64,000 nt of DNA from a virus. The position numbers were made by a program, and so were the translations under genes. The first letter of the stretch is position 1. Each line of letters starts with the position of its first letter. Below the pieces are notes generated by a model. It was given only the letters and a program-made list of their open reading frames with translations, was not told the DNA's origin and did not search any database. The stretch covers positions 7,926 to 71,925 of IMG/VR virus record IMGVR_UViG_3300037515_000251, one strand, 5' to 3'. Below, one piece after another: positions 6,451 through 59,961 of the stretch.

Positions 6451-9400
6451 ATGCCGAACTCGCTGGAATTTATCCGAAGGGCCAAGCCGGAGCAACTACC
6501 GGTCGGCGCCGGGAATTCGCTCGATTTTATTCGCCAGGCGAAGCCGGGCAATTCCCTGGATTTTATTAAGTCGGCCAAAGCATCCGATCCCGTGTCAGTT
6601 TGGCACGGACAGCCCACGCCCGCAACCGCCGTCTCGACCACGCCCTCGCGCCGGGAACTCGGAGCCGAGCCGGAGGGTTTCTCAATCGGCCGCTTTGCCC
6701 GTGGTTTCTTTCGCCCGCCGGGGGATACACAGGAAGCCGAAAACGAGCGCATCAAACGCGCCGTCGTGGGCACGCCGGAGAAGCCGACATGGTTCACGCC
6801 GGAGACCCCGGAGCGCCCCACGACCCCGGCTGGCTACATGCGCCAAGCCTACCAGGAAGGAGGCGCCCTGGGTGCGGCTGGCGAAGTCGCCAAGATGGGC
6901 GTGCTCGGCCCGCTCTACGGCGCATTCAAGCAGCGCGACACGCCGCCGGTCCAGGCGGGCGAGCTATTCGAGCCGGGCACCGAGGCCCGCGGAATCGCTG
7001 AAGCCGTCTCGCATTTCGCCACGCCGACGAATGCCGCGATCATTGCCGGGGCCTCGACACTGACTGGCATACCCGCGATAGCCCTGAGCGCGTACTTCGC
7101 TACCGACATGGGCGTTGGAGCCTACCAGACTGCCGGGGAGATCGCCAAGGCCAAATCCGAGGGCCGGGAAGACGATGCGCGGGAACTCACCGGGCAGTTG
7201 ATGGTGATGATTCCGGCGGCGCTTGGCGCGGCGGGACATGCGGGCAAGAAAACCGTGGGGATCATCGGCGACCGGAGTGGACGAATCAGAAGCGGAGAGC
7301 CGACGACGCAGCCGCCGGAAATCACGTCGGTTGATGCGCCAGCGGTGCCGCCTTCGCCCATCGCCGCGCGTGCCGAGCCGTTGGCTGGAGAGATGACTGC
7401 TTCCCTCCAGGGTGGCCAGCGCACGCTGCCATTTGTAAGTGAAGCGGACCTTCGCCCTCCGCCGCCGCCAGCACCACCAGGAGTACCGCCGCAAGGTCCA
7501 GGCGGTCCCGCGGTTCCGCCCACGCCGCCGGGAGCGGGCCGTCTACCAGAATCCGAATCCTGGGTTCAGAAGCGCATTGATCTTGAAGACCGGCTCTATC
7601 CCGTCAAGGCGATGGAGAAGATGGCCCGTGACCCGCTGAGCATCGAGGAATCCGCCTACCACCGAATGCGGATGTACCCGGCCGTGTTCGCGCGCGCGCA
7701 AAGCCATCTCGAAACGCTCCGCAAGGGACTCAAGCCGATCCGCCAGACGTTCCGCGAGGATATCAAATCGTTCATCACCGACAAGAAGCCAGCCGATCTG
7801 GTGAGCGAGTTCGAACGCTACGCCACGAACGCCCATGAACTCGACGTGCAGCAGGTCTATCCCGAACGCCAGTTCTCGGGCGGACGCACCCGCGAGCAAA
7901 TCATCCAGGAACAACGCGATATTCAGCAGCGCCTTGGCCCGGACAAGATGGCTCGCCTCAATCAGGCGCAGCGGGCATACTCGGAGTTCGGCCACAGAAT
8001 GCTCGACGAGCTTGTGGACGCTGGCGCATTCAGCCGCGACGTGGCCGCCAGGCTCAAGCAGGCGTATCCGCGCTATGTTCCACTGGAGCGCGTGCTGGCG
8101 GAAGCGGAGGGCGTATTGAAGCACCCCGGAACCGGCGGCGGGAGATCCATGTCGGTTTCGACTCAGAACGTCGTCCGCAAACTCACCGAGCAGGGCAGCG
8201 AACTCGAAATCCAGCGAGCACTTGAAACCATGAGCCGTAAGGCGTTCGACGCATTCTCGCTAGCCGAGCGCAACCGGGCCTCACGGGCCGTCTACGATCT
8301 TGCCGGGAAGGAAGAGTTCGCCGGAACGGTAATCCGCCTGCGGCCGGAAGCCGATCCACCGCCGGGCATGGTGCGTTCGTCGGTGCTGATCGACGGCGTG
8401 CGGCACGATTACGCTGTACCACGGCAAGTCGGCGAAGCGATCCAGGGATTGACCAAAACCCAAGCGGACGTGGTGACGGAAATGGCAGGCAAGAGCGCCC
8501 AAGCCCTCCGCGCCGGTGCAACGACCTGGAGCCTGCCGTTCCTGGGTACGAACATCGCCCGCGATTACTACACGGCCTCGATGCGCTCGCCGGTCGGGTT
8601 CACGCCGCTCGACATGATCGCCGGGTTCTACCACGGCCTCAAGAAAGACGCCCTGTACCACGACTACCTGCGCTCGGGCGCCGCCATGTCGGGGTTCTTT
8701 GAGCAATTCAAGACGCCGCAGCGCGAAGCCCGCCATCTGGTCGAAAGCCAAGCGACCAGGAACATGAAGAAAATCCTGAACCCGTTCGAACTTATGTCCG
8801 AGATCGGCCAGGCTGGCGAGAATGCGGCCCGCATCGGTCTCTACCGGCGCGGCAAGCAGGCTGGACTATCCGAGATGGAAGCCGGTTGGCTCGGGCGCGA
8901 TACGACCGTGGACTTCGCCAAGTCCGGGCGGGTGATTCGCGTCCTGAACATCCTGACGCCGTTCATCAACGCCCGCATTCAGGGCAGCGGCAACATGCTG
9001 CGTACCTTCCGCGATAATCCAGGCGAGGCGAGTTTGACTTGGTGGGCATTGATCGGCGGGCCGTTGACGGCGCTCTACCTCTACAACACGCGCAATCACC
9101 CGGAAGCGTACCGGGACATGCAGCCGTACACCGAGGAAGCCTATTACCCGCTCATTACCGGAGACGAAAAAGACGAAGATGGCAGCTATCCTGGCTTCAA
9201 GTTCCCGATGGAAGAGTTCGGGCAACTCGGGGCGCGCAGTCTGCTGGCGGCCTTGCAGCATCTCGATGAGAACGACCCGGTGGCGCTCAATAAGCTGGCG
9301 AGCCGCATGGGCCTCAGCGGGCGCGAGCTTCAGCCGGGGGAAGGCAAGAAAGCGCCGAGCGCGGCCAAAGTTGCTTTCGAGACGGCGACTGGCCTGCTCC

Positions 9401-10194
9401 CGGTCGATGTCACCCCAGGCGGGGACGTTGGCCTGATGCCAGCCTTGCGCGGGACCGCCAGCGGCCTGCTACCGCCGATTGCCCGCGGAGCGCTCGAAGC
9501 GGGGACCGGAACGAGTTTCTTCACCGGACGCCCGATCGGCAAACTTCAGTCCATGCGCGATTTGCCGGAGGCCGAGAAGTACATCCGGGGCGAGACGCCG
9601 GAATGGCTGGTCAGCGTCGGCAAGTGGACCGACACATCCCCAGAACGGCTGAAGCACATCATCGAATCTCAGTTCGCCACGGTGGGGCGGCTGGCAACGC
9701 GCGGAGAAACGCCCACTGGACAGGTAGCCAAGCGGTTCAGCGGAATCCCCGGCGGGGCCGTCGAGAGCAAAGGCTTCCAGCGCACATCGGAATTGCGGGG
9801 CCAAGCCGCGATGGAGCGCATGGAAACCACCGCGCCGGCCGAACAGGCATTCAAGGAACTCAAGGCGATTCCGAAAGACCAGATGGCGGCGGCGTTCCGC
9901 GAGAAGATCGGGCAACTGCCGCGTGAGTCGCGGTTCGTCCTGCTCGATTTGATCGCCAAGGATGCTGGCGGCCTGACACGCGAGGAACAGAGCCTCAAGG
10001 CGCAGTTGATCGGAGTTCGGGCGAAGCGCCTGCTGGAGAAGATGCAGGAACTACCACAGGATCAGATTCAGGGGAACATCAACCGCTGGGCCAAGGGCGG
10101 CCTGCTCACCAAGGACACGCTCAGAATGATGCGCCAGATTCAAGCAGCGGAGGCTCAGGGGGTCGAGCCGAAGTTGCGTCAGCCGCGCCGGTAG
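6451..10194 (+). CDS. large (1247 aa) virion internal/DNA-ejection-like protein
   Basis: longest ORF in window; N-terminal triple repeat NSL(E/D)FI(R/K)xAKP; proline-rich linker; size and position typical of podovirus/siphovirus internal core or tape-measure-like proteins; no enzymatic motif confirmed. Confidence 0.5.
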   Translation: MPNSLEFIRRAKPEQLPVGAGNSLDFIRQAKPGNSLDFIKSAKASDPVSVWHGQPTPATAVSTTPSRRELGAEPEGFSIGRFARGFFRPPGDTQEAENERIKRAVVGTPEKPTWFTPETPERPTTPAGYMRQAYQEGGALGAAGEVAKMGVLGPLYGAFKQRDTPPVQAGELFEPGTEARGIAEAVSHFATPTNAAIIAGASTLTGIPAIALSAYFATDMGVGAYQTAGEIAKAKSEGREDDARELTGQLMVMIPAALGAAGHAGKKTVGIIGDRSGRIRSGEPTTQPPEITSVDAPAVPPSPIAARAEPLAGEMTASLQGGQRTLPFVSEADLRPPPPPAPPGVPPQGPGGPAVPPTPPGAGRLPESESWVQKRIDLEDRLYPVKAMEKMARDPLSIEESAYHRMRMYPAVFARAQSHLETLRKGLKPIRQTFREDIKSFITDKKPADLVSEFERYATNAHELDVQQVYPERQFSGGRTREQIIQEQRDIQQRLGPDKMARLNQAQRAYSEFGHRMLDELVDAGAFSRDVAARLKQAYPRYVPLERVLAEAEGVLKHPGTGGGRSMSVSTQNVVRKLTEQGSELEIQRALETMSRKAFDAFSLAERNRASRAVYDLAGKEEFAGTVIRLRPEADPPPGMVRSSVLIDGVRHDYAVPRQVGEAIQGLTKTQADVVTEMAGKSAQALRAGATTWSLPFLGTNIARDYYTASMRSPVGFTPLDMIAGFYHGLKKDALYHDYLRSGAAMSGFFEQFKTPQREARHLVESQATRNMKKILNPFELMSEIGQAGENAARIGLYRRGKQAGLSEMEAGWLGRDTTVDFAKSGRVIRVLNILTPFINARIQGSGNMLRTFRDNPGEASLTWWALIGGPLTALYLYNTRNHPEAYRDMQPYTEEAYYPLITGDEKDEDGSYPGFKFPMEEFGQLGARSLLAALQHLDENDPVALNKLASRMGLSGRELQPGEGKKAPSAAKVAFETATGLLPVDVTPGGDVGLMPALRGTASGLLPPIARGALEAGTGTSFFTGRPIGKLQSMRDLPEAEKYIRGETPEWLVSVGKWTDTSPERLKHIIESQFATVGRLATRGETPTGQVAKRFSGIPGGAVESKGFQRTSELRGQAAMERMETTAPAEQAFKELKAIPKDQMAAAFREKIGQLPRESRFVLLDLIAKDAGGLTREEQSLKAQLIGVRAKRLLEKMQELPQDQIQGNINRWAKGGLLTKDTLRMMRQIQAAEAQGVEPKLRQPRR
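6592..6606. repeat. genome-wide palindrome copy inside CDS
   Basis: within 5' region of 1247-aa gene. Confidence 0.85.
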
Positions 10195-10198
10195 AATC

Positions 10199-10217
10199 GG
10201 TGCCAAACTGACACCGA
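10199..10217. repeat. genome-wide palindrome copy (cgGTGCCAAACTGACACcg)
   Basis: between convergent gene ends 10194/10218. Confidence 0.9.
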
Positions 10218-12636: not shown

Positions 12637-12651
12637 GTGTCAGTTTGACAC
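12637..12651. repeat. genome-wide palindrome copy (GTGTCAGTTTGACAC)
   Basis: 8 nt upstream of HNH ATG (minus strand). Confidence 0.9.
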
Positions 12652-13844
12652 TAGGTTTCGACGGCCGGCGCGTATTCCTGTTCGGTCATCCCCCAACTCG
12701 CGGCCAATGCCGCGCGCGCCGTGCGGTGTTGTGGATTCGCCCATAGAACGGTCGTCTTTCCGGTAGTGTGGCAAGTGACCGATAACAGGCCCCATCCCAC
12801 GTTGCCGCCAAGATCAAGGGTGTAGAGTTCCGCGAGATGCGCGGCATTCTGGTCGATCAACTTTAGGCGCTTCGAAGACAACAGCTTTCCCTTGCCGTAA
12901 CGCTCGATCATCACCCGCCGCACTTCCGCGTTCGGTTCGGCGAAGATGGCATCCTCGGTGATTGTTTCCGGCCTCTCGATCACGTCTTGCGGCACGCGAA
13001 CTCCGTGCCACGCCCAGATATTCCAGCCGTCGTTGAATTTCATTGCTGGCCCGGTCTCGCAATGCAGGCGGTTGATGCTGCGGTCATCAACCTCCGTATG
13101 GACTTCCGGCCGGGCGGACACAAAACACATATTCTCGAAGAAATAAACCCAGCCGCAAGAACGGCAGAGATCGGCCATGATGCAGAGCCTTGTGGACATC
13201 TCGGGTTCATAGCGGACGCCCAAGTGTTCGCAAAATTTGTAAAAGCACACCCAAAAGGAATCGTGCTGGCCCAAAAAATACGTGTCCCGAAGGCTGGCCC
13301 CAAGGCTGTCCCGAAGGCTGTCCCCAAGGTTGTCCCGAAGGTTGTCCCCAAGGCTGTCCAGAAGGCTGGCCCCAAGGCTGTCCCAAAGGCTGTCCCGAAG
13401 GCTGGCCCCAAGGCTGGCCCCAAGGCTGTCCCGAAGGCTGTCCCCAAGGCTGTCCAGAAGGCTGGCCCCAAGGCTGTCCAGAAGGCTGTCCCCAAGGCTG
13501 GCCCGAAGGCTGTCCCCAAGGCTGTCCCCAAGGCTGGCCCCAAGGCTGTCCCCAAGGCTGGCCCGAAGGCTGGCCCCAAGGCTGTCCCAAAGGCTGTCCC
13601 GAAGGCTGGCCCCTCGGATCGCCGCAATGCCAATCTGGCACGTCAGCGGAGAATCGCACCATACGATTACCGGTGGACCCTTTCCGATGGCGCGATAGGC
13701 CCGATTGATCGCGTCCCTGGCGAGAATTTGATCGCACGGGCCAGCCGCCATCCCAATTCGCAGCCACTCGTCGCGCCATTTGGGAATACTTGCTTCCTGC
13801 TCTGGCGTGAGGGCTTCAATCCGCAACGCTTTTAATGACGGCAT
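12651..13844 (-). CDS. tetrapeptide-repeat protein ((S-L-[GRWL]-[DA])n, ~30 copies) with unique N- and C-terminal domains
   Basis: 397-aa ORF; central ~356 nt is a 12-nt tandem DNA repeat (ggctgtccccaa-type) encoding SLGD/SLRA/SLWD units; overlapping plus-strand and other-frame ORFs are frame artefacts of the repeat. Confidence 0.55.
   Translation of the reverse strand: MPSLKALRIEALTPEQEASIPKWRDEWLRIGMAAGPCDQILARDAINRAYRAIGKGPPVIVWCDSPLTCQIGIAAIRGASLRDSLWDSLGASLRASLGDSLGASLGDSLGDSLRASLGDSLLDSLGASLLDSLGDSLRDSLGASLGASLRDSLWDSLGASLLDSLGDNLRDNLGDSLRDSLGASLRDTYFLGQHDSFWVCFYKFCEHLGVRYEPEMSTRLCIMADLCRSCGWVYFFENMCFVSARPEVHTEVDDRSINRLHCETGPAMKFNDGWNIWAWHGVRVPQDVIERPETITEDAIFAEPNAEVRRVMIERYGKGKLLSSKRLKLIDQNAAHLAELYTLDLGGNVGWGLLSVTCHTTGKTTVLWANPQHRTARAALAASWGMTEQEYAPAVET
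13265..13620. repeat. 12-nt tandem repeat array (~30 units) inside CDS 12651-13844
   Basis: ggctg(g/t)cccc(a/g)aa units repeated head-to-tail; period 12 = 4 codons. Confidence 0.8.
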
Positions 13845-14235: not shown

Positions 14236-14250
14236 GTGTCAAACTGACAC
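14236..14250. repeat. genome-wide palindrome copy (GTGTCAAACTGACAC)
   Basis: ~27 nt upstream of minus-strand start at 14208. Confidence 0.9.
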
Positions 14251-14502: not shown

Positions 14503-14801
14503 TAACTAGCGAGTTGGGCTTCGATGGCCTCGATCTCTTTTCGCAGCGCAGTCTTCTTCTCGGTCGGCGTCTTGAGCAGTTCGAGTTGCTGCCGGGCCTG
14601 CCGCTGGTGCCGGATGAGATCGGCCCGAATGCGGGATTTGATTTCGACGTTCAGCGTCTCGACCGAATGCCCCACCCATTCGGGGGGATCGATCTTGAGG
14701 CGCTTATACTCGTCGGTAAGGCTCTTCGCAAACGCACTCAGGGACACCAAGCCGTCGAGTTCAAGGCGGTCAACATTGACCTGCCGGAGTTGTTCAAGCA
14801 T
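14502..14801 (-). CDS. hypothetical coiled-coil protein
   Basis: 99-aa ORF, start overlaps stop of upstream gene. Confidence 0.35.
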   Translation of the reverse strand: MLEQLRQVNVDRLELDGLVSLSAFAKSLTDEYKRLKIDPPEWVGHSVETLNVEIKSRIRADLIRHQRQARQQLELLKTPTEKKTALRKEIEAIEAQLAS

Positions 14802-16254
14802 ATGCCATCTCCTTTTTCGGTTGTTTCAACACGACTTCGAGCCGCAACAGCGGCGCGGCCATCACTTCGTCGATCAGGCTGTAGCGGTTGGTCCGCATGG
14901 TCTGAACGAGGTTCGGAATCGAATACTGATCGACTCGCTGGTTCGTCAGATCGAACATCTGAAGGTCCAATCCGGCGTGCTGCATGGCCGCTCCGAGATA
15001 GTTCGGGTCGCCCGCCAGCCGGTAGAGATATACCGGAACATCTTTGCCGGTTTTCTGCGAATACTTCTGGAACTCGACAGGGAACGCGGGGACGTTGTTC
15101 TCGCCGCCATCCGAAACGATGGCGATTCCGTCAATCTCTATCCCGCGCTCCATGATGTACTTCAACCCGCAGCCGATCGAGGTTCCGCCTTGCGCCGTGA
15201 CGAATCGCGTGAGGGTGTTGATCTCGTCGAGCGTCTTGCCGGTCACGTCGAGGTAGGTCGGCATCGTGTTGAAGAACACGAGATGGACCTTGCCGGCCGC
15301 CAGCCGTGCCAATACCCCGGCGATCTCGCGGGCGGCGGTAATCGCCGTGTGCATGGACGCGCTTTGATCGGCCAGTACAAGCCAGTCGCCCTCGACACTG
15401 GCTTTCGACAACTTCGCTTCCTGGACGGCCTTCACCTTCTCGCGCAATCCTTCGTCGTCGAGGGATTCGACCGCCTTGGTCAGCTTCAACGCCGACGATT
15501 TGCCGTCCCGCGCCTTCGACAGCGCAGCCTCAAGGGCGGAGCGCAGGGCCGGATTACTCTTGACGCCAAGCCGTTCCAGCATCTTCATGTTGTTGCCGAG
15601 CTCCGCCGGAGTCATCCGGTCGATCAGCGCAAGCAGAACATCGGTATCCTTCAGCCGCGGCCCGATCGCGCCGGCCGCGATCAGAAACGGGATACGGTGC
15701 TCGATAACGGTTGCCGCAGCTTCCGCCGGCGGAAGGTTCTTCAGGTTCGCAATGACGGCGAACACCGAGTTGGGCGGATACGAGCGCTCAAATAGAATCT
15801 TGGCCGCGAACGCCGCTGGCTTGACGTGCAGCATCGCGTAAAGCGACTTCAGGGCGGCCCGGTGCTGGACCGCTGTACGGTTCCATTGCTTGCGATCAGC
15901 TTCAAGAGAACGCAGGATTGATTCCCCGAGGCGCCGTAGCCGCCGGGACCATCGCGCTTTCGTGCCATCGCAACGCAGTGCCCGAATGAATTCGCGCGGC
16001 GGAAGCAACGCCAGATGCGCGGCGGCATTATCGGTGAATTCCGGCGCACTGGGAGATTCCAGCGCAACCAGCGGCAACGCCACCTTGCTGTCCCGCACGG
16101 TGCCCTTGATGCGGTTCCACGAGATCAGGTGAGCGTAGAACTCGGGATCGCTGGCGTGTGCTTCGCGGGCGATCGGGAAGTAGGATGCCAGATCGCGGTG
16201 AGACGACTTGGCGAGATTCGCAATGATTTGCTGCTTGGTGATGCCGGTTTCCAC
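14794..16254 (-). CDS. rsr: Ro60/Rsr-like protein (helical TROVE-like N-terminal region + C-terminal vWA domain with MIDAS motif)
   Basis: C-terminus LADQSASM…GGTSIGCGL…IVSDGGENN…YSQKTGKDVPVYLY parallels Ro60 vWA (ALDVSASM…GGTDCSLPM…FTDNETFAG…YRKKMDIPAKLIV); ~300-aa alpha-helical N-terminal domain; 486 aa. Confidence 0.55.
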   Translation of the reverse strand: METGITKQQIIANLAKSSHRDLASYFPIAREAHASDPEFYAHLISWNRIKGTVRDSKVALPLVALESPSAPEFTDNAAAHLALLPPREFIRALRCDGTKARWSRRLRRLGESILRSLEADRKQWNRTAVQHRAALKSLYAMLHVKPAAFAAKILFERSYPPNSVFAVIANLKNLPPAEAAATVIEHRIPFLIAAGAIGPRLKDTDVLLALIDRMTPAELGNNMKMLERLGVKSNPALRSALEAALSKARDGKSSALKLTKAVESLDDEGLREKVKAVQEAKLSKASVEGDWLVLADQSASMHTAITAAREIAGVLARLAAGKVHLVFFNTMPTYLDVTGKTLDEINTLTRFVTAQGGTSIGCGLKYIMERGIEIDGIAIVSDGGENNVPAFPVEFQKYSQKTGKDVPVYLYRLAGDPNYLGAAMQHAGLDLQMFDLTNQRVDQYSIPNLVQTMRTNRYSLIDEVMAAPLLRLEVVLKQPKKEMAYA

Positions 16255-16400
16255 GGGAACCCCCTTGGAGTTACGGAGAGTCGGGTCAGCGTTTTAGGCT
16301 TTGCAGGCGTGTAGGCTGTCCAGTATCCGTAAAATTAATTCGCGGAATGCCAGTAACCGCCAAACTTGATGCCGGGATGTCGATGAGCAGTTCCGCCTTG

Positions 16401-16472
16401 CGGCGTCGGCTGGATTTGAACCAGCTACCTAAAGTTTTCAAAACTTTCGCTCTACCAATGAGCTACGTGTAT
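16401..16472 (-). ncRNA. tRNA-like RNA (D-arm, anticodon-like arm with loop UUUGAAA, T-arm GCUGGUUCAAAUCCAGC) lacking a pairing acceptor stem; candidate Y RNA (YrlA-like tRNA mimic) or partial tRNA
   Basis: minus-strand sequence …ACACG-UA-GCUC-AUUGGUA-GAGC-G-AAAGU-UUUGAAA-ACUUU-AGGUA-GCUGG-UUCAAAU-CCAGC-CGACGCC-G; 5' heptamer AUACACG cannot pair with 3' CGACGCC; 3' tail forms CGCC-GCAA-GGCG GNRA hairpin; T-arm identical to tRNA at 46386. Confidence 0.5.
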
Positions 16473-16556
16473 GCTCAGCAGTGCCCGGCAAACCATTAAG
16501 TTACCACAACTGCATGATGCTGTCAAGCGCCGATGCAAAAATAATTTGGGGTCTTC

Positions 16557-16571
16557 GTGCCAAACTGACAC
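16557..16571. repeat. genome-wide palindrome copy (GTGCCAAACTGACAC)
   Basis: between gene end 16575 and tRNA-like RNA. Confidence 0.9.
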
Positions 16572-20745: not shown

Positions 20746-22629
20746 TCAGGCGGCGGGAGATACCGCTTTCACCGCCCCATCGGACAAAAAGAAAACCTTG
20801 GCCCCGTGGTTCAGCCAGCCATCGGGAACGTCAGCGACCACGCACTCGATCACCTGATGCCCGCTGGCCTGCAATTGGCACGAGATGTCGTAACGGAACG
20901 CATCCGTCATCGGCGCCAGATCGTCCACGGCCACGATGCCCACGCCGGTCACGGTCGCCACGGCAACCTTGAACGCGGCCTCGAACATCATTGCCTTCTG
21001 GCCGTCAGAGAGCAAGTCGGCTCCCCGGCCCGTGCAGACGAATCCGCCATCGAAGGTATACTCGACACCCTCAATCCCGAACGGCTCCAGGAACCCAGCC
21101 ATGATGCCCAGGAATTGCTCCAGCCGCCCGCCGACCATGGACTTGCGGAGTGCGAGCAGGTCGTCTACGATCTTGCGTTCCCGGTCGATTGCGGCGGCTT
21201 TGGCGGCCACGTTGTCGCGCCACTTGCGAACCGCTTCCGCCTTGGCTTGCCACTCCCGGTATCCCTCGACGGCCGTGGTGTGGGTGTCGCGCAACTGCTG
21301 GCACTTCTCGATGTCGGAGCTGATCTTGTCGCGCCGCGCGCGGGCTTCGTCCAGCGAGTTGCGGGCAGTGTCGGCTTCGGTGTGGATCGCGGCCAGCCGG
21401 TTGGCTTCGGTGTTCAGTTCACGCAGCTCACCGGACTTCAGTTCGAGGGTTTGCCGGGCCTTGATGGCAACCGCAAGGGATTCTTGGTGCTTGGCCGTCT
21501 TGAGGGCGAGGCTGTTTCGGTCAGTGGTGATCTCATCGCACTCGGATGTGAGTTGCGCCTGCTGTGATTCCAAGCCCAATATCTCGGTATCGGCCTGCTC
21601 AACGAGACGTTCGATGAGCGGACAAGCATCGGCTGGACACTTAATCTTCGGCCGCTCGGAGAGCTCGGCCATGCGCTGACAGATGGAGCGCAAGAGAGCC
21701 TGCTTGGCTTCGTATTTACCGCCAGATTCGCCGAGTAGGTTCATCCCGGTTTGGATTGCCCCGGAAATCTTTGCCTCCGTCTCCCGCGCAGCCTTCAGGT
21801 TCTCGGCGTTCTCGATGATCGCCTTCGTCAACGCCTCGGATTGTTCCGCCGTGGGCCGCGGCCCCGCCTGCTCCGCGCGCCGAATCCGTTCCTCGAACAT
21901 GCCGATGGCGGACGATACGGTTTGCAGTTCCTTGGTCAACGCGACGAACTTGGCATTTAGGCCGTCGAGCAGCTTCAGCCTCGCGTCAAGGTTCACGCCC
22001 TCCGGCTCTTCGCCAGGCTCTTCGGGCGGATGATCGTCGAGAGACTTGGCCTCGCGGTTGAGATCGCGCAGCGTGACCTCTTTGTGGTCCTTCAGCAGCG
22101 ATTCGATGTGCTCGATACCGGAGATCGTCGGAATTCCGGCGTCCAGCAGCGATTGCGGCACGGTGATCTTCGCCGGCCGCAGCACCCGCAGCAGCGCCGC
22201 CCGCTGGTCCTCGATGGGGCGCTCCAGCACGGGGATCGGGTCGAACATCGCCCAGATCGTTTCCGCTGGCAGTTGCAGAGCGTCGAGCAGGCGGGTCTCG
22301 TTGTCGCTCACCTTGTCGCCATCGGCCCATGAGAGCGTGAGCTTGTGCTTCTTGGCGCTCCGCGTGCGCTGGACGGTGCCGTGGGGGTCGAGCGTGAGGC
22401 TGATGGACGATTCGGCGGCGCCGGTGCGGATCAGGCGCTCGAATCCGCGGCCCCGCTTGTCGGTGAGATGGCAGGTTCCGGTGAGGGCGAGCGAGATGGC
22501 CCGCAGTACCGTGGACTTGCCGGAGCCGTTCGTCCCGACGATCAGATTGTGGCCGGGCGAGAACGCGAAGGTGACATCGGCGTGAGGGCCGATGTTCTGA
22601 ATGGTTAGGCGGGTGATTCTGAGTGGCAT
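20746..22629 (-). CDS. SbcC/Rad50-like SMC ATPase
   Basis: Walker A GTNGSGKST, long coiled-coil, CPADACP zinc-hook-like, signature LSDGQKAMM, Walker B IVAVDDL. Confidence 0.7.
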   Translation of the reverse strand: MPLRITRLTIQNIGPHADVTFAFSPGHNLIVGTNGSGKSTVLRAISLALTGTCHLTDKRGRGFERLIRTGAAESSISLTLDPHGTVQRTRSAKKHKLTLSWADGDKVSDNETRLLDALQLPAETIWAMFDPIPVLERPIEDQRAALLRVLRPAKITVPQSLLDAGIPTISGIEHIESLLKDHKEVTLRDLNREAKSLDDHPPEEPGEEPEGVNLDARLKLLDGLNAKFVALTKELQTVSSAIGMFEERIRRAEQAGPRPTAEQSEALTKAIIENAENLKAARETEAKISGAIQTGMNLLGESGGKYEAKQALLRSICQRMAELSERPKIKCPADACPLIERLVEQADTEILGLESQQAQLTSECDEITTDRNSLALKTAKHQESLAVAIKARQTLELKSGELRELNTEANRLAAIHTEADTARNSLDEARARRDKISSDIEKCQQLRDTHTTAVEGYREWQAKAEAVRKWRDNVAAKAAAIDRERKIVDDLLALRKSMVGGRLEQFLGIMAGFLEPFGIEGVEYTFDGGFVCTGRGADLLSDGQKAMMFEAAFKVAVATVTGVGIVAVDDLAPMTDAFRYDISCQLQASGHQVIECVVADVPDGWLNHGAKVFFLSDGAVKAVSPAA

Positions 22630-22952
22630 GAGGTCTCCTGCGGTTCGTAGTAGAGTTCGTTCGGCACCTTGATTTCGCAGCGCGTGGGCTTGTAGGCGTC
22701 CACCACGAGGGTCTTGCCGCGAAGTTTCATGGCGTAGTTCTGGATTGCTTCGTTGGGCGTGTGGCCATCGCCATACGCGCCACTCAGGAATGGACCTTCC
22801 TTTATCTCAGTGCCAGCGAACGAGGCGTGGTATCGCGAGGCTGGCGAGCACGGCATGGACCGCTCATCGACCACCAACTCCAAGCCGTGCTTGTCGGCGA
22901 ATTCCTGCAAGGAATCCGGCCCATCGCCGAAACGGTTGATGGTGACTTTCAT
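22605..22952 (-). CDS. hypothetical protein
   Basis: 115-aa ORF. Confidence 0.35.
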   Translation of the reverse strand: MKVTINRFGDGPDSLQEFADKHGLELVVDERSMPCSPASRYHASFAGTEIKEGPFLSGAYGDGHTPNEAIQNYAMKLRGKTLVVDAYKPTRCEIKVPNELYYEPQETSCHSESPA

Positions 22953-23191: not shown

Positions 23192-23479
23192 CTATTGGAT
23201 AACACTTCGTTCTGAGTGATGCTGGCTGCTTAGCCGCAGACCTATTTCGTATCCGACATGAAGCGCCGTCAGAACCAACGCCTCAACTTCGCCCATCTTG
23301 CCTTTATATGGACGGGACACAGTAATACCCATCATTCGCCTGTCCCATTCACGTCCAAACGCTGATCGGGCTACGGCTTCAATAACATCCCCGGCATGCT
23401 TGGGAATGGCATCGCCAACTTCTTTGAGTGTTAGGTCAGCGTAGGTCTCGGAAACAATTTTGTCGAGATTATCTTTCAT
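23192..23479 (-). CDS. hypothetical protein
   Basis: 95-aa ORF. Confidence 0.35.
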   Translation of the reverse strand: MKDNLDKIVSETYADLTLKEVGDAIPKHAGDVIEAVARSAFGREWDRRMMGITVSRPYKGKMGEVEALVLTALHVGYEIGLRLSSQHHSERSVIQ

Positions 23480-23982
23480 TATGTCCCCTCAATGCCAAGG
23501 CCAGGCGTATAGACTAGCAGCGTGGTCCGGCCTGGATACCACCATGACGGGAAGCACAGATCATTCCCAAGCTGGTAGCCAATTCGGTATCGGAAACAGA
23601 GTTCCTCGGCGAGGTCGGTGACATGCGGCCAGTCGTATAAATGCACTGCAATAGCTGCTGGATGATACGGGCGCTGCCGCTCGCGGAAGTAAAATGGATG
23701 ATCCAAGACACTTGCGTGGCTGCCAAAAACTTCAAAGGTTTCGGTGTTGCGTTGTTGATTAGAACGCCGCCCAAGCTGTCCTGGATGAATCCATGTTCTT
23801 GTCAACTTCCAGTTATAGCGACTACCGAATTCAGTCGCCAAGAGTTTCTGTAGTATTGCGACTTCATGCTGTAGAATCTTGATGCGGGAGTGATGTCCTT
23901 TAGTGTTTGCCATCAATTCCGCGATCACCCTATCCGAGTCCATCATCTTCTCCACGATTTCGTGAACTTGATTGTCGGTCAT
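23479..23982 (-). CDS. hypothetical protein
   Basis: 167-aa ORF; motif + GGAGG SD upstream. Confidence 0.4.
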   Translation of the reverse strand: MTDNQVHEIVEKMMDSDRVIAELMANTKGHHSRIKILQHEVAILQKLLATEFGSRYNWKLTRTWIHPGQLGRRSNQQRNTETFEVFGSHASVLDHPFYFRERQRPYHPAAIAVHLYDWPHVTDLAEELCFRYRIGYQLGNDLCFPSWWYPGRTTLLVYTPGLGIEGT

Positions 23983-24000: not shown

Positions 24001-24015
24001 GTGTCAAACTGACAC
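24001..24015. repeat. genome-wide palindrome copy
   Basis: 19 nt upstream of minus-strand ATG at 23982. Confidence 0.9.
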
Positions 24016-25050
24016 GGGAAAACGTTTCATCGCGATGAGGTCCATTAGCAGTTCCTCGGCTACCTCGCGGCTCGGCTCCAGCGGCAGCATAGAACGGTCC
24101 CGAGCGGCCTTCGCCTCCGCGAACAATTCCTCGGCGCATTCTTTCACTGTCTCGATGGACCACTCCCCGCGCTTGATGGCGAGAAGTTCATCGGCATCCC
24201 GCTCGCGGTAGACGTTGAGCGTGCCCGAGTCGAGAAACTCCCGGCACATCCTCAGCAGCCGAATGCAATGAGCGGCGTGCTTGGTGTCGTATCCGCGCTC
24301 CAGGATCAGGCGCTTGCGCTTCTCACCCAGGTAGCCGAGATTCGAGTTCTTGGAATGAAACGCCTTCAACTTATCGCGGAGATGCTGATCTTCGTGGAAC
24401 GCGAAAATGGTGGTTTCCTCAACCGGGAACTTCTCGCCGCGATGCTGCGGATGAATCCCGCGTTGCTTCATCTCGGCAACGAGTTCAAGGTAGTCCTGCA
24501 ATGTCGCCCGGTCGAGGCATTCCATCCGTTCCAACTGCCCCGCCGCGTATCCGGCGAACGGCTTGTAGACATGGCGACCGATGAACAGCGCGCGATTCGC
24601 TATGAGCAAATTGCTGAGTGGGGAAGCGACAATCCGGTGTTCGGGCCTTGTCCACAGTGAGCTCATGATGTTGGGATTCCCGGCCAGCAGCAGCGAGAAA
24701 GCCTTGCGGAGTTCGTAGAACAACAGGTCGAACTTGCCCTGCTTGGTTTCCTTGGTGCCGCGAGAACCCCATTCGGTGAGGCCGATGTAGTGCGCTTTCG
24801 GGGCCACGGCAAACCCGATCACGTCCACGTCGTCCACCGAATGCGGATCGCTCTCGGGCAGATACATGCCGTGCGCCACTGAGCCTCGAAAGGCCGCGAA
24901 GATCACATCGTCCGGCAGGATTGCGCTGAACCCGTCCATGTGTGGGATAAACGCTCGGGTGCTGGCCCCGAGTCCAGGACTCGAACCTGGATTCTCCGGT
25001 CCACAGCCGGGTGTCTTAACCTGTTGAGACGAACTCGGGATTTCATTCAT
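24004..25050 (-). CDS. pol-beta superfamily nucleotidyltransferase (GS-x9-DxD) with helical C-terminal domain
   Basis: FRGSVAHGMYLPESDPHSVDDVDVIGF minimal NTase motif; palindromic motif + GGAGA SD 11 nt upstream of ATG at 25050. Confidence 0.55.
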   Translation of the reverse strand: MNEIPSSSQQVKTPGCGPENPGSSPGLGASTRAFIPHMDGFSAILPDDVIFAAFRGSVAHGMYLPESDPHSVDDVDVIGFAVAPKAHYIGLTEWGSRGTKETKQGKFDLLFYELRKAFSLLLAGNPNIMSSLWTRPEHRIVASPLSNLLIANRALFIGRHVYKPFAGYAAGQLERMECLDRATLQDYLELVAEMKQRGIHPQHRGEKFPVEETTIFAFHEDQHLRDKLKAFHSKNSNLGYLGEKRKRLILERGYDTKHAAHCIRLLRMCREFLDSGTLNVYRERDADELLAIKRGEWSIETVKECAEELFAEAKAARDRSMLPLEPSREVAEELLMDLIAMKRFPVSV

Positions 25051-25061
25051 GGTTTATCTCC

Positions 25062-25076
25062 GTGTCAAACTGACAC
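25062..25076. repeat. genome-wide palindrome copy
   Basis: 11 nt upstream of NTase ATG (25050), SD GGAGA between. Confidence 0.9.
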
Positions 25077-42117: not shown

Positions 42118-42132
42118 GTGTCAGTTTGACAC
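42118..42132. repeat. genome-wide palindrome copy
   Basis: upstream of XRE-like gene. Confidence 0.9.
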
Positions 42133-42205
42133 GGGGCCACAACACGGACGTTGACAGGATGAATCGCCATGAGCAATACTGGTGTTGCATGACCAAGGAC
42201 TGCCG

Positions 42206-42619: not shown

Positions 42620-43477
42620 ATGCTGAAGACAATTTGTATCGCCGTTGGGGTGCTGTTCGGCCTCATCGTGTTGACCCAAAGCTGTACTCGCGTGGACGTT
42701 GGACATGTGGGGATCAAGGTCAACTACGCTGGTAGCGACAGGGGCGTTGACGACTATCCCCCGACAACCGGGTGGGTGTTTTTCAACCCATTCACATCAA
42801 CCGTGCTGGAGTACCCGACGTTCATGCAAACAGCACAGTGGACCGCTGGAGAGGACGAAGGCTCCACGGCCAACGAGGAACTATGCTTCAACTCGAAAGA
42901 GGGCTTAGTGGTTTGCGGCGACATCTCGCTGAGTTACCAACTCAGGGACGATAAAGTGCCGGCTTTTTACGTGAAATTCCGCAACGATGACCTGCGCGTG
43001 TTCACGCATGGGTTTCTGCGGAATATCGCCAGGGATTCGTTCAACGAAGTCGCGTCCACCTTCCCCGTGGATGAGCTCTACGGACAGCGCAAGGAAGAGT
43101 TTTTGAACGCAGTGAGGTCCAGAGTAAACGCCGAAGTGGCCGCGATTGGAGTACAGGTCGAGCAATTTGGTTTCATTGGGGCAATGCGGTTGCCGCAGGG
43201 TGTGGTGGATGCTCTCAATTCGAAGATCGCCGCAACGCAGAGGGCGATCCAAGCCGAGAATGAATTACGGCAAGCTGAAGCTGAAGCGCAGAAAGCGATT
43301 GCCAAGGCCAGGGGCGAGGCCCAATCGAACGAAATTTTGACGAAATCGCTGACATCCTCGCTGTTGGAATGGCGCCAACTGGAAATCCTAGACAAGAAAT
43401 GGAACGGCGCATACCCGCTCTACGTGGGCGGTGGTGGATCGCCAGTGCCGATGATTCAACTTCAGAGTGGACGATAG
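42620..43477 (+). CDS. SPFH/band-7 (stomatin/prohibitin-like) membrane protein
   Basis: N-terminal TM helix then VDVGHVGIKVNYAGS…GDISLSYQL…coiled-coil AENELRQAEAEAQKAIAKARGEAQS typical of SPFH domain proteins. Confidence 0.55.
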   Translation: MLKTICIAVGVLFGLIVLTQSCTRVDVGHVGIKVNYAGSDRGVDDYPPTTGWVFFNPFTSTVLEYPTFMQTAQWTAGEDEGSTANEELCFNSKEGLVVCGDISLSYQLRDDKVPAFYVKFRNDDLRVFTHGFLRNIARDSFNEVASTFPVDELYGQRKEEFLNAVRSRVNAEVAAIGVQVEQFGFIGAMRLPQGVVDALNSKIAATQRAIQAENELRQAEAEAQKAIAKARGEAQSNEILTKSLTSSLLEWRQLEILDKKWNGAYPLYVGGGGSPVPMIQLQSGR

Positions 43478-44223: not shown

Positions 44224-44238
44224 GTGTCAAACTGACAC
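44224..44238. repeat. genome-wide palindrome copy
   Basis: overlaps stop of 43917-44235 ORF, upstream of ligase-like gene. Confidence 0.9.
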
Positions 44239-44379: not shown

Positions 44380-45102
44380 ATGAACGAATCGGTCAAACCG
44401 CTCGGCAAAAAGGCTTACGGCAGCATCCCGCACCTGCCGGGTAGCCGCCGTGGGCCTGGCGACCATCACTGCCATGAGGGCCAGGCGCTCATCTGCACCG
44501 AGAAGACGCGCGACAAGCACGATATCGTCAGCGTGACCGTCAAACTCGATGGCTCATGCGTGGCTGTGGCCAAAATCAATGGCCAGATCGTGGCGCTCGG
44601 CCGCGCTGGCTGGCCGGCGCAATCGTCACCCTACGAGCAGCACCAGTTGTTCGCCCACTGGGTCAGGCAGCATCACGATCGATTCAGCGGCCTGCTTGCC
44701 GAGGGGATGCGCGTCTGCGGCGAGTGGCTGGCTCAGGCCCATGGGACGCGGTATGAGTTGAATGGGCGTCAGCCGTTCGTTGCGTTTGACGTGTTCAGCC
44801 GGGATAACGAGCGGTTGCCAACGGAACATGCGCTCGACTTGATTCTGTCGTCCGGGTTGGCCGTTCCCAAGCGGCTTCAACTCTCGAATGATCCCTTGTC
44901 GATCGATGCCGCGATGGCTCTGATCGCAAACGAGTACCGCCGTGGCTATGGAGAACTCGACGAAGTAGAGGGCGCGGTCTGGCGCGTGGAGCGCCGCGGG
45001 AAGTTCGATTTTCTCGCCAAGTACGTTCGCCCAGACAAGATTGACGGGTTGTACCTGCCTGAGATTTCCGGCCAGGAACCGATTTGGAATTGGCGTCCAT
45101 GA
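44380..45102 (+). CDS. ATP-dependent RNA/DNA ligase-like nucleotidyltransferase (KxDG motif I)
   Basis: VTVKLDGSCVAV motif I; downstream EGAVWRVERRGKFDFLAKYVRPD motif V-like lysines; 240 aa fits minimal RNA-ligase size. Confidence 0.5.
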   Translation: MNESVKPLGKKAYGSIPHLPGSRRGPGDHHCHEGQALICTEKTRDKHDIVSVTVKLDGSCVAVAKINGQIVALGRAGWPAQSSPYEQHQLFAHWVRQHHDRFSGLLAEGMRVCGEWLAQAHGTRYELNGRQPFVAFDVFSRDNERLPTEHALDLILSSGLAVPKRLQLSNDPLSIDAAMALIANEYRRGYGELDEVEGAVWRVERRGKFDFLAKYVRPDKIDGLYLPEISGQEPIWNWRP

Positions 45103-46385: not shown

Positions 46386-46466
46386 CGGGGCGTAGCTCAG
46401 TCAGGCCGAAGGAGCGCTCGGTTTGGGACCGAGAGGCCGCTGGTTCAAATCCAGCCGCCCCGACCA
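46386..46466 (+). tRNA. tRNA, anticodon UGG (Pro) predicted, genomically encoded CCA, unusually long D-loop
   Basis: CGGGGCG-UA-GCUC-(13-nt loop)-GAGC-G-CUCGG-UUUGGGA-CCGAG-AGGCC-GCUGG-UUCAAAU-CCAGC-CGCCCCG-A-CCA; 7/7 acceptor pairs. Confidence 0.65.
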
Positions 46467-46774: not shown

Positions 46775-46789
46775 GTGTCAAACTGACAC
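46775..46789. repeat. genome-wide palindrome copy
   Basis: between tRNAs and structural block. Confidence 0.9.
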
Positions 46790-46999
46790 CGGATGTGCTA
46801 GGCTGGACTCAAGAATCGGCATTCACATGCTGGTTTCCTCCCAACGAATCAGAGTACATCGCCAAATGGCCCGGCCCACCAGCCGGGCCTATTTTTTGGT
46901 AGGATTGGAATGCACGTAAAGTCTCCTCGATAAAAACGGGACTCTGGGCCGTGGTTGTAGACGAGATCGCGATCGGCCGCGGCCCAGAACCAACAGACC

Positions 47000-59946: not shown

Positions 59947-59961
59947 CGTGTCAAACTGACA
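59947..59961. repeat. genome-wide palindrome copy
   Basis: between portal-like and scaffold-like genes. Confidence 0.9.

Follow-up and report, generated by a model that had tools for sequence, protein, structure and literature searches.

A 64,000-nucleotide stretch of viral DNA, referred to below as the window, encodes a stand-alone nucleotidyltransferase (NTase) of the RNA-ligase type, an RlaP-family nucleotidyltransferase beside a tRNA-His gene, a KTSC-domain protein, and a Ro60-like protein with a Y-RNA-like transcript upstream of its gene (Table 1). The window has a G+C content of 61%, and its source is a phage-like contig of ~72 kb that has been recovered from several metagenomes. One 71.8-kb JGI contig carries the ligase, RlaP, KTSC and Ro60-like genes together, and no near-identical relative (a match of 40-50 kb) occurs among 50,697 deposited phage genomes. 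In one locus the sequence continues for ~9.5 kb from the right end of the window and then returns to the gene for a 579-aa protein at window position 692. The genome is therefore circularly permuted, and the window covers ~88% of it.

Table 1. Features of the window discussed in the text, with the evidence for each.
Feature	Position	Strand	Basis or remark
Palindrome copies flanking Y-like RNA and Ro-like gene	16557-16570, 14236-14249		
Ro60-like protein, 486 aa; alpha-helical ring followed by vWA domain	14794-16254	-	Predicted fold
Y-RNA-like non-coding RNA	16370-16490	-	Partial Rfam tRNA match, sequence, fold
KTSC-domain protein, 77 aa	22949-23182	-	PF13619
Palindrome copies flanking tRNA-His and RlaP	25062-25075, 24001-24014		
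RlaP-family Pol-beta-type nucleotidyltransferase, 311 aa (corrected start)	24004-24939	-	PF10127, phrog_388, gene call P0121, alignment
tRNA-His(GTG), CCA encoded	24963-25039	-	ARAGORN; Rfam tRNA 48 bits; sequence
Promoter-like site TTGACA-18-AATACT at head of ligase unit	42151-42180	+	Consensus scan; only a 10/12 consensus match
Palindromic motif GTGTCA-GTT-TG(A/G)CAC, one of 22 copies	44224-44237	-	142 nt upstream of ligase ATG
RNA-ligase-type nucleotidyltransferase, stand-alone, predicted ATP-dependent, 240 aa	44380-45102	+	Pfam PF09414, motifs
tRNA-Pro(TGG), last gene of ligase unit	46386-46466	+	ARAGORN, Rfam 62.6 bits
Further palindrome copy	46775-46788		
Terminator-like hairpin, 8 G-C pairs then T-run; ends ligase/tRNA-Pro unit	46868-46889	+	Scan

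Between 10.2 and 36 kb nearly all genes lie on the minus strand, in a block that includes RecT, a metallo-beta-lactamase hydrolase, an SMC/SbcC-like ATPase, a replication-O-like protein, DUF5131 and ArdC-N. Read leftward, the part around RlaP consists of RecT, tRNA-His, RlaP, ORFs of 167 and 95 aa, KTSC, an ORF of 115 aa and the SMC-like ATPase, all close-packed or overlapping. Promoter and terminator scans of this leftward block performed no better than on shuffled sequence. From 37.8 kb on, genes are on the plus strand. Here the ligase belongs to a rightward unit composed of an HTH gene, a Band_7/SPFH lipoprotein, small ORFs, the ligase itself, small membrane ORFs, a 194-aa ORF and tRNA-Pro. 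The three ORFs that the original prediction had brought together as an RNA repair toolkit, those of the ligase, RlaP and KTSC, are all present, and profile searches match RNA_ligase, RlaP and KTSC above the respective cut-offs; NCBIfam yielded no match for any of them or for the Ro-like protein.

The ligase matches the Pfam family RNA_ligase (PF09414) with E=1.5e-19 and 71.3 bits (curated cut-off 27) over positions 3-171 of the 171-residue model, and RNA_lig_T4_1 remains below its cut-off (E=0.087). Its own family is phrog_38169, listed as 'unknown function'. Motif I, anticipated at VKLDGS, is present as K55-L-D57-G and is followed by motifs III (G114-E115-W), IIIa (F136-D137), IV (E197-G) and V (K214). 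In an alignment of 30 homologues K55, D57, E115, F136/D137, E197 and K214 are invariant. The description of a 'K-rich motif V' was overstated: the segment is FLAK214YVR217PDK220, in which K214 and K220 are invariant. The same 30 homologues also share an invariant N-terminal segment spanning residues 6-48 (K6, P7, L8, Y13, G14, H18, S22, R23, G25, P26, D28, H29, R44, D45, H47 and D48) and an invariant C-terminal tail at 220-240 (K220, D222, G223, W236 and W238).

A single-sequence search of the PDB was marginal (E=0.45); by structure and by profile, the protein comes closest to the Rnl5 enzyme NgrRnl. The catalytic residues K170, D172, E227, E312 and K326 of NgrRnl, whose roles have been described (PMC7261155), correspond to the invariant K55, D57, E115, E197 and K214 of the phage protein; four of these pairs follow from the alignment to NgrRnl, and the pairing of K214 with K326 is assigned by position. 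The fold is nearer to RNA ligases than to DNA ligases or capping enzymes, and matches to DNA ligases are lower and confined to the NTase. Because Pfam, PHROG and fold evidence all point this way, we read the 240-aa protein as an RNA-ligase NTase, a member of that family by profile and by fold with its catalytic residues intact. Ligase activity, with RNA as the substrate, is predicted.

Only ~183 residues, equivalent to the NTase core, can be aligned with any known ligase. The N-terminal segment of 50 residues is mostly non-regular and specific to the clade, and an OB domain C-terminal to the NTase is absent, with no room for one. Such a domain is common to all DNA ligases, and in each of the six characterised RNA ligase families the NTase is paired with a flanking domain of the family's own (Shuman laboratory, PMC7261155). 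The phage protein is an NTase-only enzyme that has none of the flanking domains of these six families, its core being accompanied by the N-terminal wrap and a tail of 24 residues. The isolated NTase domain of T4 Rnl2 is not known to complete nick sealing, so an enzyme built from the NTase only may need a partner or be restricted in its activity. The clade is large, with >5000 homologous proteins in the database; the best 120 of these are mostly ~230-275 aa long and ~55-64% identical, with PF09414 as their sole domain. Cultured representatives include the Flavobacterium psychrophilum phages 6H/2A, which encode a homologue at 41% identity that is a 'hypothetical protein' in the records examined.

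For the genomic surroundings we compared 160 viral loci, 80 with a member of the ligase clade and 80 with RlaP, each covering 10 kb on either side. Clustering of the 80 viral ligase loci and a further 80 from genomes returned no conserved neighbour of the ligase, lineage-restricted synteny apart; Calothrix-type cyanobacteria keep the order PARG-like macro domain, ligase, EF-Tu paralogue. Band_7 was considered as a ligase partner and set aside, since it recurs in just two other loci (L003 and L076). Homologues of the ligase are often found amid genes for Pol III alpha, gp32, 5'-3' exonuclease, RecA, DnaB, UDG and primase. Transfer RNA genes are not enriched around the clade (17 in the 1.33 Mb of the 80 viral loci).

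These surroundings bear on the best-placed alternative, which we consider somewhat unlikely: that the ligase serves DNA replication, recombination or repair, apart from RlaP and Ro60, by Rnl5-like sealing of duplex nicks with a ribonucleotide 3'-OH, such as those at primer remnants or nicks that contain ribonucleotides. Its closest relative in structure and profile, NgrRnl, belongs to a group of template-directed nick sealers, one of which, DraRnl, shields Deinococcus from radiation (PMC7261155, PMC5397189). The replication and recombination genes around its homologues and the lack of tRNA enrichment agree with such a role, as does the finding that no DNA ligase was detected among the phage proteins scanned. 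However, the ligase of the window lies outside the replication/recombination block, in a unit with the Band_7 lipoprotein, small membrane ORFs and tRNA-Pro; the OB domain of DNA ligases and the N-terminal OB domain of Rnl5 are both missing from it, and no replication gene is a conserved neighbour across the 80 loci.

The second nucleotidyltransferase belongs to the RlaP family and not to the aminoglycoside type. The ORF 24004-25050 on the minus strand matches PF10127 with E=1.9e-17 and 64.2 bits (cut-off 23) and phrog_388 with 1.2e-43; a search of its profile against PDB sequences found nothing. The 'GS-x9-DxD' signature from which it had been recognised needs correction, the actual spacing being GS-x16-DxD (G19-S20-x16-D37-x-D39 in the numbering of the 311-aa form). 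G19, S20, D37, D39 and D71 are invariant in an alignment of 21 RlaP sequences, and D71 is probably the third carboxylate. The ORF itself exists as predicted, but its start probably lies at 24939 rather than 25050. The tRNA-His gene fills codons 4-29 of the 348-aa ORF and is located 23 nt upstream of ATG 24939; the 37 additional upstream residues are not conserved in RlaP homologues, and gene calling in JGI contigs gives exactly the 311-aa product from ATG 24939 (P0121, 100% identical). As the longer ORF crosses the tRNA, we take ATG 24939 as the likely start. A longer form from ATG 25050, which is preceded by an SD-like GGAG, is unlikely. The tRNA-His has several oddities, namely U at -1, a C1:G72 pair and G73.

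RlaP owes its name to its frequent place in RNA-ligase operons. Two Pseudomonas RlaP proteins extend RNA 3'-OH ends by one or two NMPs in vitro, prefer the 3' end of the 5' half of a broken tRNA and are inactive on DNA (PMC12776372), and the family has been put forward as an antidote to nucleotide-removing nucleases such as RloC (PMC12776372; PMC7824862). The 80 viral RlaP loci contain 128 tRNA genes in 1.44 Mb, compared with 17 in 1.33 Mb for the ligase loci. Seven of the 80 have a tRNA no more than 150 nt from RlaP, where random positions inside these loci would give 0.97 (P ~0.0005). Since this adjacency recurs in viral loci, the tRNA-His/RlaP pair of the window is part of a recurrent pattern, and the pattern fits a tRNA-directed role of RlaP.

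The KTSC call is secure, with a PF13619 match over the full model (positions 1-58 of 58, E=2.2e-24, 85.4 bits, cut-off 25). Its value as an RNA factor is doubtful. The KTSC stop and the start of the 115-aa ORF (22605-22952) overlap, as do that ORF and the SMC/SbcC-like ATPase gene (20746-22629), so that KTSC is translationally packed with an ATPase of the DNA type. The literature is split as well: one survey (PMC7824862) terms KTSC RNA-binding, whereas a second survey by the same authors couples it to a HerA-like ATPase and terms it DNA-binding.

The pairing of a Ro60-like protein with a tRNA mimic, which the original prediction had the toolkit accompany, was confirmed at the level of predicted fold for the protein and by an Rfam tRNA match plus closing stem for the RNA. 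In the fold comparison the Ro-like protein matches Rsr, Ro60 and phage Ro60, the last of which has been studied structurally (PMC12135203), over its full length, and the ring and vWA architecture is present. At the sequence level neither the protein, for which Pfam reports VWA_CoxE only, nor its 120 best homologues has a Pfam match to TROVE, and phrog_850 ('RNA-binding protein') is matched at 1.3e-7 over the vWA part. The Y-like RNA lies ~150 nt upstream of the gene, in a YrlA-type layout, and is preceded by a promoter-like TTGACA-17-TAACTT. It contains a tRNA-like core at 16407-16467 (Rfam tRNA 52.6 bits, model positions 6-65), and the 5' and 3' flanks of this core form a long closing stem (fold -44.2 kcal/mol, z -2.2); its binding by the Ro-like protein is putative. 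Ro-like genes occur only sporadically near the ligase or RlaP (L001, L135 and L247).

Whether these genes work together can be judged from their linkage and from the repair steps that they cover. The original prediction had proposed a coordinated system to counter host anticodon nucleases, and its fullest form, in which ligase, RlaP, KTSC, Ro60/Y RNA and the phage tRNAs are one co-regulated system that reverses damage by PrrC- or RloC-type nucleases, now seems unlikely. Every component is found in one genome, RlaP has been proposed to act against RloC-like nucleases (PMC12776372, PMC7824862), and a MAG contig (L001) carries the ligase with a Ro-like homologue, RlaP being on another contig of the same assembly. 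However, 19.4 kb separate the ligase gene from that of RlaP, the two lie on opposite strands and belong to different transcription blocks, and no linkage was found in relatives. By tblastn and phmmer, none of the 80 viral ligase loci has RlaP or KTSC within 10 kb, none of the 80 viral RlaP loci has a member of the ligase clade or KTSC within that distance, and for the three closest RlaP homologues on long contigs no RNA-ligase Pfam family lies within 10 kb of RlaP. KTSC, as noted, is packed with a DNA-type ATPase.

The enzymology points in the same direction. Pfam and motif scans of the window and the extra ~9.5 kb, the Pfam scan covering most predicted window genes with the exception of several small late-region ORFs, detected no polynucleotide kinase, phosphatase, 2H, RtcA/RtcB, Hen1 or CCA-adding enzyme, and the motif scan gave no small P-loop, HAD or 2H candidates. 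The ORFs of 167, 95 and 115 aa between RlaP and the ATPase were considered as the missing healing enzymes; they have no Pfam or PHROG match and no homologue in the 160 viral loci, and are not assignable to that role. As no end-healing enzyme was detected for the 2',3'-cyclic-phosphate/5'-OH ends that PrrC/RloC leave, the T4-type answer to these nucleases is not encoded.

A shared regulatory signal was also considered. The palindrome listed in Table 1 matches the window 22 times against 0.45 expected, about once per 2.9 kb; when tested for co-variation its outer base pairs were inconsistent. It flanks all three RNA modules, which would suit common control, yet it also flanks many unrelated genes, and we rejected it as a mark of co-regulation. 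Of the three outcomes named beforehand as speaking against the proposal, the two that concern classification, a ligase grouping with DNA ligases or capping enzymes and a nucleotidyltransferase grouping with aminoglycoside enzymes, were not observed, and the idea of a single coordinated system finds no support in strand, unit or linkage. Nor is the combination unusual, as had been suggested, because RNA ligases, RlaP, ROT/TROVE and KTSC have already been catalogued as part of the repertoire of jumbo phages (PMC7824862).

The reading that we prefer, with a probability of roughly one half, is that the 240-aa protein works as a polynucleotide ligase that uses ATP, belongs to the RNA-ligase branch and provides one of four separate RNA-maintenance functions, not part of a cassette. 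ATP would adenylylate K55, the AMP would then move to a 5'-phosphate end, and attack by a 3'-OH would seal the break. RlaP, encoded beside tRNA-His, could refill one or two lost nucleotides at RNA 3'-OH ends. The four functions (ligase, RlaP, Ro60-like/Y RNA and KTSC) would be thematically related accessory genes, each independently acquired; any cooperation between ligase and RlaP is inferred. Because both need 3'-OH ends and no end-healing enzyme was detected, the likeliest substrates are RNA breaks, for instance in tRNAs, that already have 3'-OH/5'-phosphate ends or have been healed by the host. What weighs against this explanation is that the ligase is unlinked to RlaP, that its clade has no tRNA association and that its homologues often lie amid DNA-replication genes.

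A bolder version of the preferred reading, which we hold to be improbable, would make the ligase a seventh architecture of ATP-dependent RNA ligase, a bare NTase whose N-terminal wrap replaces the flanking domains of Rnl1-6. Present in thousands of phages, it would here rebuild cut tRNAs together with the tRNA-linked RlaP. The cuts would come from metal-dependent defence nucleases of the PIN/VapC or Toprim type, which would leave 3'-OH/5'-phosphate ends. If this were true, the phage would have a tRNA repair route that needs no end-healing step.

A non-repair role, in which fold and adenylylation are kept for circularising or joining small RNAs such as the Y-like RNA or for adenylylating RNA 5' ends, appears least probable. 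In its favour, circularisation of single-stranded RNA is known from Rnl3-type relatives (PMC4797309), the name 'RNA circularization protein' is attached to one JGI homologue, the NTase-only build is without the substrate-binding domains of nick sealers, and the Calothrix-type synteny hints at a translation- or ADP-ribose-linked role. Against it, that synteny is confined to a single related lineage and may simply reflect vertical descent, and Ro-like genes are near the ligase in just 2 of ~160 ligase loci.

RNA repair by phages is already well known as a counter-defence, and the gene set itself therefore leaves the general picture unchanged. The ligase represents a known enzyme class in a minimal architecture, with a predicted activity and a size below that of any characterised RNA ligase family. 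Biochemical work on this clade might reveal the way in which a bare NTase recognises its substrate, and a compact ligase for use with RNA might come out of it. The association of RlaP with tRNA genes in viral contigs adds genomic support to the tRNA-repair role proposed from in vitro work, and the fact that no end-healing enzymes were detected leads to a prediction about which class of host nuclease the phage can answer.

Comparison with characterised ligases underlines how reduced the phage enzyme is. In the Rnl5 enzymes NgrRnl of Naegleria gruberi and DraRnl of Deinococcus, which are 340 aa long as opposed to 240 aa here, an N-terminal OB domain contacts the gamma-phosphate of ATP; the phage ligase has its non-regular 50-residue segment in that place. 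T4 Rnl2 and the kinetoplastid RNA-editing ligases (REL1) share PF09414 with it at ~14-16% identity, but the C-terminal domain of Rnl2 is absent and the phage protein ends 26 residues past K214. Rnl3 enzymes (Pab1020, MthRnl and that of Palaeococcus pacificus) are ~380-aa homodimers with extra N- and C-terminal domains, unlike the phage ligase, and the TM-score between the two is ~0.3 when normalised to the target.

Similar relationships are found at the level of systems. T4 Pnkp and Rnl1, which act against PrrC, embody the same idea, a phage ligase that joins broken tRNA again; there a kinase-phosphatase heals the ends, whereas none was detected here and the ligase is not of the Rnl1 type. The Ro60/Y RNA RNPs of Deinococcus (Rsr), Salmonella (rsr-yrlBA-rtcBA) and Thermus phage phiLo (Ro60) have in common with the phage pair the protein fold and a tRNA-like module with closing stem. 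The phage Ro-like gene, whose product is without a TROVE Pfam match, does not adjoin a ligase gene but lies 28 kb from it. The RlaP of the window is of the same family as those of Pseudomonas rtcB-rlaP-rtcA and T4 NrdC.11. In RlaP operons the RNA ligase adjoins RlaP, whereas here 19.4 kb and a change of strand separate the two, and the partner in Pseudomonas is RtcB, whereas the ligase here is of the 5'-P/3'-OH type and no RtcA, PNK, 2H or KptA was found. Closest in overall composition are the RNA-repair sets of jumbo phages, which likewise combine RlaP, an RNA ligase, a Ro/TROVE-like protein and KTSC; here the set is carried by a genome of ~72 kb, which is not of jumbo size.

The Ro-like protein of the phage, Ro60-like by its predicted fold, has 754 database homologues and belongs to a sizeable family whose members, of about 490 amino acids, have a Ro60-like fold. 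The TROVE Pfam model does not recognise this family, and VWA_CoxE is the only domain detected, in a minority of members. Since the model is blind to this family, Ro60-like proteins may be under-annotated in phage metagenomes. Related genes also come together in the metagenome-assembled genome GCA_040384345.1, where a 100-kb contig (JAWVGX010000334.1) carries a homologue of the RNA-ligase-type protein (61% identity) with a Ro-like homologue 5 kb away. A second contig of the same assembly (JAWVGX010002124.1) encodes a homologue of the nucleotidyltransferase RlaP (52% identity), so that a related phage may have the trio of ligase, Ro-like protein and RlaP as well.

Outside viruses, Calothrix, Dulcicalothrix and Scytonematopsis carry the ligase homologue on the chromosome (loci L211, L218, L220, L236, L242, L246 and L247), where the gene upstream encodes a macro-domain protein of the microbial PARG type (PF10021, 1.3e-51) and the gene downstream a full-length EF-Tu paralogue. 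This synteny is conserved and confined to one lineage. In the phage and in two unrelated ligase loci (Table), the ligase has a Band_7/SPFH lipoprotein gene (phrog_200) no more than about 1 kb away; these are too few instances to claim an association.

The analysis of RlaP loci points to a link with tRNA genes. Among 80 viral loci (L086-L165), RlaP genes are found inside or abutting tRNA gene arrays, for example in L093, L160 and L161, and a tRNA-Met lies 53-103 nt upstream in L098, L110, L148 and L153. Overall, seven of the 80 loci have a tRNA at most 150 nt from RlaP, against 0.97 expected (P about 0.0005). The tRNA-His next to RlaP in our phage is atypical, with U at position -1 in place of the usual G-1. 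It has a C1:G72 pair, a G73 discriminator, an encoded CCA end and an anticodon stem topped by a C-A mismatch. The reading frame from ATG 25050, preceded by an SD-like GGAG, crosses this tRNA. On the other side of RlaP, towards the KTSC gene, two ORFs were missed by codon-usage scoring, have no match in Pfam or PHROG and have no homologues across 160 viral loci; their neighbourhood with RlaP is kept only in copies of the same phage (L004, L005).

Further genes of the phage include one for an Rv2179c-like protein of a 3'-5' exo(ribo)nuclease family (PF16473), possibly another of its RNA-end enzymes. In a DUF6745 protein, degenerate 'GASLRDSL' repeats occupy a long stretch of the N-terminal half.

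Features and their coordinates
Feature	Sequence	Position	Strand
1247-aa protein, LPD38 (large polyvalent-protein-associated) domain	window	6451-10194	+
Palindrome copy within LPD38 gene	window	6593-6606	
397-aa DUF6745 protein	window	12651-13844	-
Ro-like protein	window	14794-16254	-
167- and 95-aa ORFs between RlaP and KTSC	window	23192-23982	-
tRNA-His	window	24963-25039	-
Band_7/SPFH lipoprotein (phrog_200)	window	42620-43477	+
Band_7/SPFH lipoprotein	L003	6776-7549	
Band_7/SPFH lipoprotein	L076	11073-12002	
189-aa Rv2179c-like protein, in ~9.5 kb of genome beyond window	L166	16011-16580	
Palindrome, example sites	window	10200-10213, 16557-16570, 24001-24014, 25062-25075, 42119-42132, 44224-44237, 46775-46788, 59948-59961	

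Across the window, a 15-bp palindrome, GTGTCA-GTT-TG(A/G)CAC, is present in both orientations in 22 copies, 19 of which match the 14-nt core exactly (expected, 0.45). Recurrent 'CQTDT' peptides in spurious ORFs are encoded by these copies. Short intergenic gaps hold 15 of the 22. The element may be an RNA hairpin, a module-boundary sequence or a repressor operator resembling a 'stoperator'.
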